Assembly (NCBI GenBank): GCA_943354555.1
Contig: CALRCM010000002.1
Location: 1 to 58,844 of the forward strand
DNA length: 58,844 nucleotides
Source: Candidatus Peribacteria bacterium
GTDB lineage: Bacteria; Patescibacteriota; Gracilibacteria; Peribacterales; Peribacteraceae
Direction of reading: 5' to 3'
Position numbers and translations under genes: made by a program. The notes below the pieces were generated by a model. That model saw nothing but the letters and a program-made list of their open reading frames with translations, ran no database searches and had not been told where the DNA came from. Below are positions 33,126-33,657 of the stretch, piece after piece; the stretch's first letter is position 1; every line of letters starts with the position of its first letter.

Positions 33126-33578
33126 ATGGCTAAGCCCGTCAAGCAATACATCCCAGAAGGTTCCGATCCTCAGATCGAAAAATTCATCTGCTGCCTCATG
33201 AAGGAAGGCAAGAAGTCCATTGCACGCAAGCTCTTCCATGATGCTCTCGACATCATCAAGACGCGTACGAAAGATGCTCCGATGGAGGTCTTCCAGAAAG
33301 CTTTGCTCAATGTGACGCCGCTTGTAGAGGTCCGTCCGAAGCGTGTTGCCGGTGCGGTGTACCAAGTCCCTATCGAAGTAACACCCAAGCGCCAAGTAGC
33401 CCTCTCCGTACGTTGGATTCTTGATGCTGCCCGCAGCCGTAAAGGAATGCCGATGGCGCAGCGTCTTGCCATGGAGCTCCTCGATGCTTCTGCCGATCAG
33501 GGTGCAGCGTTTAAGAAGAAGCAGGATGTGATCAAGATGGCGCAGGCCAATAAAGCTTTCGCGCATCTCGCTAAATAA
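33126..33578 (+). CDS. rpsG: 30S ribosomal protein S7
   Basis: KF...LM..GKKS.A.K.......I........P.EVF..AL.NV.P..EV..KRV.GA.YQVP.EV.... Confidence 0.97.
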   Translation: MAKPVKQYIPEGSDPQIEKFICCLMKEGKKSIARKLFHDALDIIKTRTKDAPMEVFQKALLNVTPLVEVRPKRVAGAVYQVPIEVTPKRQVALSVRWILDAARSRKGMPMAQRLAMELLDASADQGAAFKKKQDVIKMAQANKAFAHLAK

Positions 33579-33595
33579 TATCTATTTCTACGAGC

Positions 33596-33616
33596 CATCC
33601 TGAGCTTGTCGAAGGG
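33596..33616 (+). repeat. GC-core repeat CATCCTGAGCTTGTCGAAGGG
   Basis: The same core occurs at 26519-26540 and, reverse-complemented, at 24230-24249; variants occur at 27044 and 40995-41019. Confidence 0.75.
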
Positions 33617-33657
33617 TGGCGCAGGCGAACAAGGCCTTCGCGCATTTGGCGAAGTAA
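33616..33657 (+). pseudogene. displaced second copy of the rpsG 3' end ((V)AQANKAFAHLAK*)
   Basis: gtg gcg cag gcg aac aag gcc ttc gcg cat ttg gcg aag taa encodes the same 12 residues plus stop as 33540-33578. It differs at 7 codons, all synonymous. Confidence 0.75.

Follow-up and report, generated by a model that had tools for sequence, protein, structure and literature searches.

Two synonymous versions of the rpsG 3' end around a GC-rich hairpin repeat in an uncultured Candidatus Peribacteria bacterium, and their possible origin from a small end-replacing module

The present work deals with the 3' end of rpsG, the gene for ribosomal protein S7, in the DNA of an uncultured Candidatus Peribacteria bacterium (Peregrinibacteria, Candidate Phyla Radiation or CPR), which was analysed as one window of 58,844 nucleotides (contig CALRCM010000002.1). 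The S7 protein encoded there has 96-99% amino-acid identity to Peribacteria S7 proteins, and an identical rpsG in L001 (comparison loci are cited by such numbers) matches PF00177 of Pfam. The gene ends in a stretch, hereafter c1, that comprises its last 14 codons, stop included (atg gcg cag gcc aat aaa gct ttc gcg cat ctc gct aaa taa). After a gap of 37 nt, which contains CATCCTGAGCTTGTCGAAGGG, a second version of the same end is found, hereafter c2 (gtg gcg cag gcg aac aag gcc ttc gcg cat ttg gcg aag taa). The gap is occupied by a short spacer, B, and by a hairpin unit, H, whose 3' stem half is the start of c2. Further downstream lie ORF105 and fusA. The coordinates of these features, and of two relatives of H elsewhere in the window, are collected in Table 1.

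Table 1. Features of the rpsG 3' region and of related hairpins in the window
Feature	Position	Strand	Description	Basis
rpsG	33126..33578	+	Ribosomal protein S7, 150 aa; final 42 nt are c1	ORF list
Putative inserted module	33537..33615	+	c1, spacer and hairpin unit H, 79 nt; missing from the seven closest lineages sampled	
c1	33537..33578	+	Translated S7 end (MAQANKAFAHLAK and stop), synonymously recoded, third positions AT-rich	
Spacer B	33579..33593	+	tatctatttctacga; unlike the DNA 3' of c2	
Hairpin H	33594..33620	+	Stem GCCATCC (33594-33600) pairing with GGGTGGC (33614-33620); loop TGAGCTTGTCGAA (33601-33613); family core CCTGAGCTTGTCGAAGG (33599-33615)	
c2	33616..33657	+	Apparent displaced resident rpsG end ((V)AQANKAFAHLAK and stop), out of frame with rpsG	
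Terminator-like hairpin	33636..33664	+	Within c2 (CTTCGC-GCATTTG-GCGAAG), then TAATTTTCTT	Terminator scan
ORF105	33782..34099	+	105 aa, coiled-coil-like; between rpsG and fusA, outside the insert	
cofE-like gene	26195..26998	-	F420-0:gamma-glutamyl ligase family, PF01996	
Second H copy	26517..26540	+	CTGTCCTGAGCTTTGTCGAAGGGC; loop one base longer; 24-nt in-frame insertion in the cofE-like gene	
Nested H-like hairpins	27040..27130	+	Intergenic, beside the cofE-like gene; H-type unit in the loop of another	

The positions of both copies and of the gap had been given exactly in a first-pass annotation of the window, as had the fact that c2 stands in another frame, which is due to the 79-nt offset between c1 and c2. 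Its statement that the copies differ only synonymously holds for eight of the nine nucleotide differences (at third positions, or at the first position of a Leu codon), the ninth being the change from the ATG that opens c1 to the GTG that opens c2; past this first codon, seven of 12 codons are altered, all synonymously, and the 12 residues and the stop are unchanged. The pair was returned by a repeat search of the window as a direct repeat of 42 nt with 81% identity, and both junctions of the insert have TGGCGCAGGC in common. Extended to 54 Peribacteria loci, the repeat scan gave 96 matches against 1 in shuffled sequence, and no gene-end duplication beyond the cases described here; three unrelated duplications with a period of 79-80 nt also came out of it.

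Metagenome assembly could in principle stitch two strain variants of the rpsG end in tandem, and L331, a related species with a c2-like tail, occurs in the same sample (ERZ27280297). However, three independent assemblies (Logan ERR3719144, Logan ERR5863107 and ENA ERZ27280297), made from different runs and with different assemblers, agree at every base of the region, a unique 37-nt spacer with a structured repeat separates the copies, and the same architecture is present in independent genomes from other studies (L016, L028, L018, L010, L054 and L027). The identity across runs makes an assembly artefact so improbable that it can be set aside for practical purposes, and the duplication is thus regarded as a property of the organism.

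For the comparison with relatives, species-representative genomes were scanned with S7, which yielded about 50 Candidatus Peribacteria species, the nearer ones being reached through S7 protein clusters. When the rpsG-fusA spacers of related genomes are set side by side, as the first-pass annotation had proposed, the insertion is absent from all seven nearest lineages sampled, namely L328/L329 and L330 (S7 99% identical to that of the window at the amino-acid level), L331 (97%), L004 and L332-334 (96%), and L335/337 and L338/339 (95%); in L330, whose contig stops 14 nt past the stop codon, only the empty-type tail is readable. The empty L328 has the same order, rpsG being followed by a 128-nt spacer and by a 109-aa homologue of ORF105, and this spacer is homologous to window positions 33658-33781, 3' of c2; on the other side, the 30 nt 5' of position 33537 are identical between the window and L004. 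Since the relatives are empty and the flanks orthologous, the window differs from the empty allele by a discrete 79-nt segment. ORF105 itself has no Pfam or PHROG match, and only its 3' remnant is found in L009. The length of the rpsG-fusA spacer varies among 44 species between about 0 and 2.2 kb, which makes this boundary a turnover hotspot.

As far as sequence comparison goes, both its position and its similarity to other tails identify c2 as the resident rpsG end. The mean identity to the tails of six relatives amounts to 0.889 for c2 and 0.814 for c1; between c2 and the tails of L331 and L004 there are 2 and 3 differing nucleotides, respectively, and c2 matches L004 at 11/12 third positions against a background of 0.63 (P=0.03). 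What is decisive for this assignment, judged from the alignments, is a parallel case, that of the filled L016 and the empty L021, which have the same downstream gene and a gene-body identity of 0.898. With a background of 0.74, the L021 tail is matched at 9/12 third positions by the c2 of L016 and at 1/12 by its c1 (P=3.5e-6); tail identity is 0.84-0.85 in species pairs without insertion at the L016-L021 distance. The c1 of L018 likewise matches at only 1/12 third positions, and L340, a fourth member of the L016/L021/L018 clade, is empty and has a c2-type tail. A hand count of the sites at which c1 and c2 differ, pooled over window/L004 and L016/L021, shows the relative agreeing with c2 at 16 and with c1 at 2; with L328 as the reference of the window, the same count is only 4:3, so that the asymmetry in favour of c2 depends mainly on L016/L021. 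A transfer of c2 together with the downstream DNA from an L021-like donor into L016 was ruled out, the downstream identity (73.5-83.5%) being not above that of the flanking genes.

The two copies had been read at first pass as ends that both evolved as coding S7 termini, and the way in which their resemblance ends bears this out: similarity stops at the stop codon, and local alignment of B with B', the DNA after c2, is no better than in shuffles for the window (P=0.16), L016 (P=0.84) and L028 (P=0.88), the corresponding flanks being unrelated also at the rpsL sites of L054 and L027 presented below. Homology that ends at the stop between unrelated flanks points to two long-separated coding tails rather than to a fresh local duplication. 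Across six species, 46/47 differences between c1 and c2 are synonymous. Identity at four-fold degenerate sites is 0.46 for window-L004, 0.64 for L016-L021 and 0.52 for L016-L028; these sites are near saturation even between the closest species, and a relic drifting for a species-level time would therefore be unrecognisable. The copies are also set apart by composition. The GC content at third codon positions (GC3) of c1 minus that of the gene body averages -0.33 in all six duplication-bearing species, compared to +0.01 ± 0.13 for tail minus body in 43 other species (Mann-Whitney P=1.4e-4), and the displaced copies are GC3-rich (0.67-0.92). Five H-linked cases together show 31 differences with A/T in c1 and G/C in c2, and 3 in the reverse sense; in L028, codons ending in C/G begin to give way to codons ending in A/T within two codons of the junction. 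The Asn codon is AAT in all c1 copies, and CAA, TTT and GCT, common to several of them, are not used by the resident-type tails of their own clades.

The hairpin unit H folds with an 8-bp stem that covaries between species (gccatgg/ccatggc in L016 and L028, tgtcc/ggaca in L018); its conserved part is the loop (TGAGC-N2-3-GTCGAA), the stems being variable. The first-pass annotation had called the GC core a repeat: the motif given above for the gap is single-copy in the window at up to three mismatches, but the family behind it is real and includes the variant in the cofE-like gene and the nested hairpins of Table 1, the latter having a fold energy of -49 kcal/mol (z = -5.4). Peribacteria loci and the window together hold about 14 copies of H in 443 kb, against ~1.6 in shuffles, and 16% of instances, compared to 4% of controls, have a stem of 5 bp or more beyond the core. 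Beyond this group, the exact 17-mer core is found in at least 120 stretches of metagenome contigs, whose GC content spans 31-73% among the matches listed, and in at least 120 stretches of IMG/VR viral contigs. Doublets of H lie unannotated in intergenic DNA of plasmids of Moraxella osloensis, Sphingobium, Comamonas and Methylobacter, and doublets are present in L054, L084, L111, L156 and others. On these matches, H is to be counted as a member of a very widespread, cross-phylum repeat family.

H also inserts on its own. DNA and protein alignments of the cofE-like gene show alleles filled with H in the window and L207 and an empty one in L206, which proves the H copy to be a clean insertion and shows that H can be inserted as a unit by itself. 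The copy sits between two 12-nt repeats, GAAAGAGAAAAG, and these adjoin in the empty allele too. The insertion lies in a low-complexity hypervariable loop, where it adds 8 residues in the window species and in the L004 genome (…EKRK[EPFDKAQD]RQREK…); the homologue in L206, 81% identical, is without H, and other homologues have different low-complexity inserts at the same loop. Elsewhere, the metagenome and IMG/VR loci (L084-L203, L208-L327) show tandem arrays of H with a 23-24-nt period (L096, L273) besides inverted doublets, H on viral contigs often lies among genes for HK97-type portal, protease and capsid proteins (among the matches listed), and translations of H give the recurrent junk peptides PFDKLRANG, LRQAQDE and SLSKG.

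Searches for a partner or a known identity of H were negative. Apart from the gene-end cases and the tandem arrays, 157 instances of H show no flank duplication or fixed target duplication. No recurrent protein family stands beside H among the 120 metagenome loci listed, only generic head genes recur beside it in the viral loci listed, with no linked gene, and the doublet is absent from cultured phage genomes. A known structured RNA family was rejected, as Rfam 15 gave no match for the H of the window at E up to 10, nor any in 20 H-bearing metagenome loci at gathering thresholds; a hammerhead-like ribozyme, suggested by a UGA..GAA resemblance, was discarded as well because the CUGANGA core is lacking. 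Literature searches, within the library covered, returned no match for the sequence of H or for its characteristic translated peptides.

The arrangement seen in the window recurs. A functional gene end, a spacer, H and a relic follow one another at the rpsG 3' end in the window, L016, L028, L018 and L010, and the same layout, with H inverted, is present at the rpsL 5' end in L054 and L027. In seven out of seven cases, read in the orientation of H, the functional gene end is followed by a spacer, by H (5'-TGAGC..GTCGAA-3') and by the directly abutting relic, whose first bases are the 3' half of the H stem. The repeat period is 104 nt in L016 and L028, and shortened relics of 15-21 nt, devoid of a start codon, are seen in L018 (HLAK and stop) and L010 (AHLAKA and stop). 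At rpsL, the 5' end of the gene is duplicated around the inverted H (L054 1967-2080, L027 1939-2060), and the relic heads, MPTINQLTR and VPTVHQRIR, lie upstream of the real start; in L054, the relic head begins an upstream ORF of 30 codons, which continues across H and terminates 12 nt within the new rpsL start, and the L027 relic is decayed (ATG>GTG, N>H, L>R). Decay or truncation in L027, L010 and L018 fits non-functional displaced copies. The type of module is not congruent with host relatedness: L016 and L018, with a gene-body identity of 0.886, nevertheless carry different H subtypes and spacer lengths (36 nt and a GG…CC-stem H in L016, 4 nt and the exact CC…GG core in L018), L016 and L028, only 0.80 identical, yet have the same 62-nt spacer plus H with 77% identity and no indels, and an exact or near-exact H core is common to L018, L010 and the window. 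Such a lack of congruence speaks for modules moving from one lineage to another. The cross-phylum hairpin family, the recurrence in other species and the occurrence at the rpsL 5' end, as read from these sequences, go beyond the first-pass annotation. Two duplications of another make were observed besides. In L036 (2897-3135), the rpsG end and its 3' flank form a tandem duplication of ~105 nt, both units of which end in ACCGCGGCGGAG, with a 25-nt junction that has no canonical H and a coding part in which 8/8 differences are synonymous; the repeat includes non-coding flank (P<0.0002), and this is the only true tandem duplication. In L057 (2879-3480), from a distant member of the Patescibacteria, a hicB-hicA toxin-antitoxin pair lies between rpsG-end copies terminating in …HRMAEANKAFAHVAW and …HRMTEANKAFAHFA before their stops, and no H element is present at these ends.

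The anatomy of the insert, its absence from the closest relatives and its recurrence in other species and at a second gene are thus observed directly. To account for them, we propose, with evenly balanced confidence, that the 79-nt segment may be a small imported, non-autonomous end-replacing unit inserted in the resident rpsG 3' end. Such a module would consist of the synonymous last 13 codons and stop (c1), ~15 nt of unrelated spacer and, at its 3' end, a 22-27-nt GC-rich hairpin (H). S7 now ends in c1, and the original 42 bp, c2, would persist directly 3' of H as an untranslated, out-of-frame relic in the 3' untranslated region. The c1, B and H parts probably descended from a module lineage of their own, with AT-rich third codon positions, the AT-rich tail and spacer reading as one stretch GCCAATAAAGCTTTCGCGCATCTCGCTAAATAATATCTATTTCTACGAG. 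Entry may have taken place by recombination, Campbell-like or short-patch, between Peribacteria lineages at the highly conserved stretch ...AAGATGGCGCAGG, with ATGGCGCAGG as the conserved entry stretch; the left junction would lie inside this conserved core, and at the right one H would meet the same core in the resident gene. Insertion at the end of the essential S7 gene would be viable only because the module restores the C-terminus. The module would need no function of its own and could be a selfish or neutral passenger, although H and the c2 hairpin may incidentally act on transcript ends.

Several observations weigh against this proposal or leave its mechanism undemonstrated. No donor was found that has c1, B and H in a different context; the 79-nt insert encodes no recombinase, transposase or integrase, none is recognised in the neighbouring ORFs (Pfam, PHROG), no tRNA or tmRNA gene lies near the insert, and a degenerate pattern for S7 tails had no match in 2.9 million IMG/VR viral contigs. 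Besides, a unit of 79-104 bp is very small for any known integrating element. In the window, c1 matches L004 at 5/12 third positions (P=0.12), a divergence not significantly greater than expected of an ortholog, and the L328 tail is nearly as far from c2 as from c1 (5 and 6 differences). The segment rpsL-rpsG-c1-B-H-c2 is collinear in L016 and L028 at ~81%, a value equal to that of the flanking genes, and looks like old vertical inheritance; the c2 copies of these two species are both intact, and 6/6 of their differences are synonymous despite an identity of 0.52 at four-fold sites. Finally, the rare lineage-specific ending AHLAKA and stop is present in both c1 and c2 of L010, which argues for a source within the same lineage. 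The core idea of the first-pass annotation, an insertion or recombination event that brought a replacement 3' end and displaced the resident one, is supported by the fact that c2 continues into L328-orthologous DNA and is nearer to the relatives' tails, although the mechanism is not demonstrated; and the comparison of the copies with relatives and with codon usage, which it had recommended, speaks for a closer c2 and an aberrant GC3 of c1, the divergence of c1 being not significant for the window taken alone.

Alternatively, the module could be the scar of a larger integrative element, mobilised by a phage or island integrase with the rpsG end as attachment site, whose interior was deleted to 37-62 nt. 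The architecture is indeed reminiscent of attL and attR sites, in that the two junctions have the same short motif, the incoming copy is in frame and the displaced one lies downstream; the AT-rich c1 with its non-optimal codons is as expected of mobile DNA, the hicB-hicA pair of L057 would make a plausible larger remnant, and both the hypervariable rpsG-fusA spacer and the e14/icd/icdC precedent (PMC13626634) point the same way. Yet no integrase or phage gene stands at this site in any locus, the remnant always ends in the ubiquitous H, which also inserts alone (24 nt), and L016 and L028 have the same 62-nt remnant, on which independent deletions would not converge. Taken with the lack of viral S7 tails, this makes such an origin unlikely, and the end-targeting element that the first-pass annotation had named among the mechanisms is not demonstrated. 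A local duplication of the rpsG end with H at the joint, through staggered-break fill-in, slippage or template switching and followed by divergence of the copies, appears slightly less probable still. It would explain why, in every case, H stands precisely where the repeat units join, and it can draw on the cofE copy of H between its two short repeats, on the true tandem duplication of L036, on the common ending of the L010 copies and on the near-equal distances to L328 in the window; however, in the H-linked cases the flanks past the stop are unrelated, the cofE repeats are adjacent in the empty allele too, and flank duplication is otherwise missing from the 157 instances of H. In addition, if c2 were neutral, its changes would be expected to be mostly non-synonymous and no fewer than those of c1, contrary to the near-complete synonymy of the differences, and in L016 it is c1 that departs from the relative and c2 that is normal.

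The persistence of c2 raises a further possibility, namely that the displaced copy is kept by selection as a transcript-end or terminator element, a homology arm, a guide-like target or a micro-ORF of 13-20 codons starting with ATG or GTG. The six relics, ~200 nt in all, show a single amino-acid change, although four-fold sites are only 46-64% identical between even the closest species; between L016 and L028, where all c2 differences are synonymous, conservation stops at the c2 stop codon; and the first codon of c2 is ATG in L016 and L028 and GTG in the window. Moreover, the c2 of the window contains a terminator-like hairpin with a U-tract that is also present in the L004 and L338 tails and is lost in c1, where the stem has a mismatch. 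On the other side, the rpsL relics decay, that of L027 having two amino-acid changes and no ATG, the L010 and L018 relics are mere fragments, and no effector protein is linked to H; to our knowledge, no role has been described for a free peptide identical to the tail of a ribosomal protein. The tail hairpin is not conserved across 49 species, with no covariation at one variable pair and modest covariation at the other, and in L016 c1 forms a better stem than c2; any function of it would thus be lineage-specific at best, and a conserved RNA hairpin as the cause of c2 retention was dismissed on this covariation check. Retention by selection is accordingly viewed with the same considerable doubt as local duplication. 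Even less probable is a cut-and-rescue or homing-type selfish miniature, in which H and c2 would serve as handle plus guide, or as homology arm, for a nuclease or recombinase acting in trans; the targets would be uninterrupted rpsG or rpsL ends in other cells, and c1 would rescue the gene and escape re-targeting. This would explain the sense identity of c2 to functional tails, the maximal recoding of c1, the single polarity with which H abuts the relic and the choice of the most conserved ends of essential genes as targets.

Among known systems, the closest to the proposed module is e14 of E. coli, which, like phage 21, integrates at the icd 3' end and leaves the icdC pseudogene (Hill et al. 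1989, PMC210168; PMC13626634). There too, a central or essential gene remains functional, as the incoming DNA supplies a mostly synonymous replacement 3' end, the resident end is displaced as a fragment and the two copies flank the insert as direct repeats, the proximal one in frame; in e14/icd, their recombination regenerates a chimeric gene. However, e14 is a 15-kb element with integrase and excisionase, whereas only 37 nt separate the copies here, with no recombinase or element gene between them and neighbours without Pfam or PHROG mobile-element matches. The rpsG module is about one two-hundredth the size of e14, ends in a ubiquitous hairpin repeat and is also found at a gene 5' end (rpsL). 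Genomic islands at tRNA and tmRNA ends similarly restore the 3' end of their target and leave a displaced partial copy at the far junction, but with near-identical att cores beside an integrase instead of synonymous-saturated protein-coding ends.

As a repeat, H is comparable to the REP/REPIN sequences mobilised by RAYT (PMC3733652): it is short, GC-rich, palindromic, dispersed and mostly intergenic, often forms inverted doublets and sometimes lies in genes, near or overlapping stop codons. It differs from them in the absence of a GTAG or CGTC tag and of a linked RAYT, and in the conservation of the loop instead of the stem; REPs are species-specific, whereas the H 17-mer spans contigs of widely different GC content, plasmids of several proteobacterial genera and viral contigs, and H motifs are absent from the REP survey paper. 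We know of no REPs that have duplicated, recoded gene ends as flanks. The copy of H in the cofE-like gene, an in-frame insertion in a loop of a conserved enzyme, recalls Rickettsia palindromic elements, while the H of rpsG is not read through, the gene having a second version of its own end to complete it. Translational bypass elements (T4 gene 60, byps of Magnusiomyces mitochondria) are short GC-rich hairpins in a coding region near a stop, with matching sequence on both sides; no bypass is needed here since c1 already provides the full C-terminus and stop, and after a hop to c2 the tail would be either unchanged or duplicated. Three further candidates were rejected. A miniature inverted-repeat transposable element would measure 70-300 bp, end in inverted repeats of 15-30 bp and make a short fixed target duplication, which does not fit H with its 24-27 nt and no general flank duplication in 157 instances; a diversity-generating retroelement is inconsistent with the absence of A among the c2 bases at differing sites (3/9 in c1) and of a reverse transcriptase among the neighbours scanned; and simple tandem duplication applies to L036 only, since elsewhere the similarity stops at the stop codon.

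The window contains other repeats. A GTAG-tagged palindromic family (CCGTAGAGACG…CGTCTC), separate from H, is found at 28660-28693, 47322-47351, 52492-52520, 52880-52907 and 53152-53179, and also downstream of rpsG in L012. AT-rich short tandem motifs (GAATTGAGAATTG… and GGGTTTATGGGG…) flank ribosomal-protein and translation genes at 23776-23812, 25257-25293, 25331-25364, 28139-28175 and 58183-58233, and occur at 26080-26130 as well; other Peribacteria have their own signature motif at the same positions, such as CTAACACTCTAAC in L025 and, before both rpsL and rpsG, GTAACGAGTAACC in L045. Within the ORF at 13311-20990 (2559 aa), a 12-nt tandem repeat, AAAGAGCCCGTC, encodes KEPV repeats at 19318-19497, and internal repeats of 243 nt extend over 18845-19813. 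In the leader just 5' of the fusA start (~34227), a terminator-like hairpin with a U-tract (GGCATCCGCTCCGGGTGCCTTTTTT) lies at 34165-34192; its sequence is conserved in L009 and L335, and it could be an attenuator or leader element.

If the proposed origin is true, tiny non-coding repeat modules can colonise essential conserved genes by carrying a recoded gene end, a form of colonisation that until now was known from kilobase-sized elements with an integrase and from no others. The duplication of a synonymous gene end beside a hairpin repeat also provides a practical marker to date insertions and to trace recombination between uncultivated CPR lineages, and could help to find the machinery that moves a repeat family common to phyla, plasmids and viral contigs. 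In terms of annotation, short pseudo-ends after ribosomal protein genes are to be taken as real features instead of assembly errors, and H-derived peptides in ORFs (…PFDKLR…, …SLSKG…) as repeat insertions.

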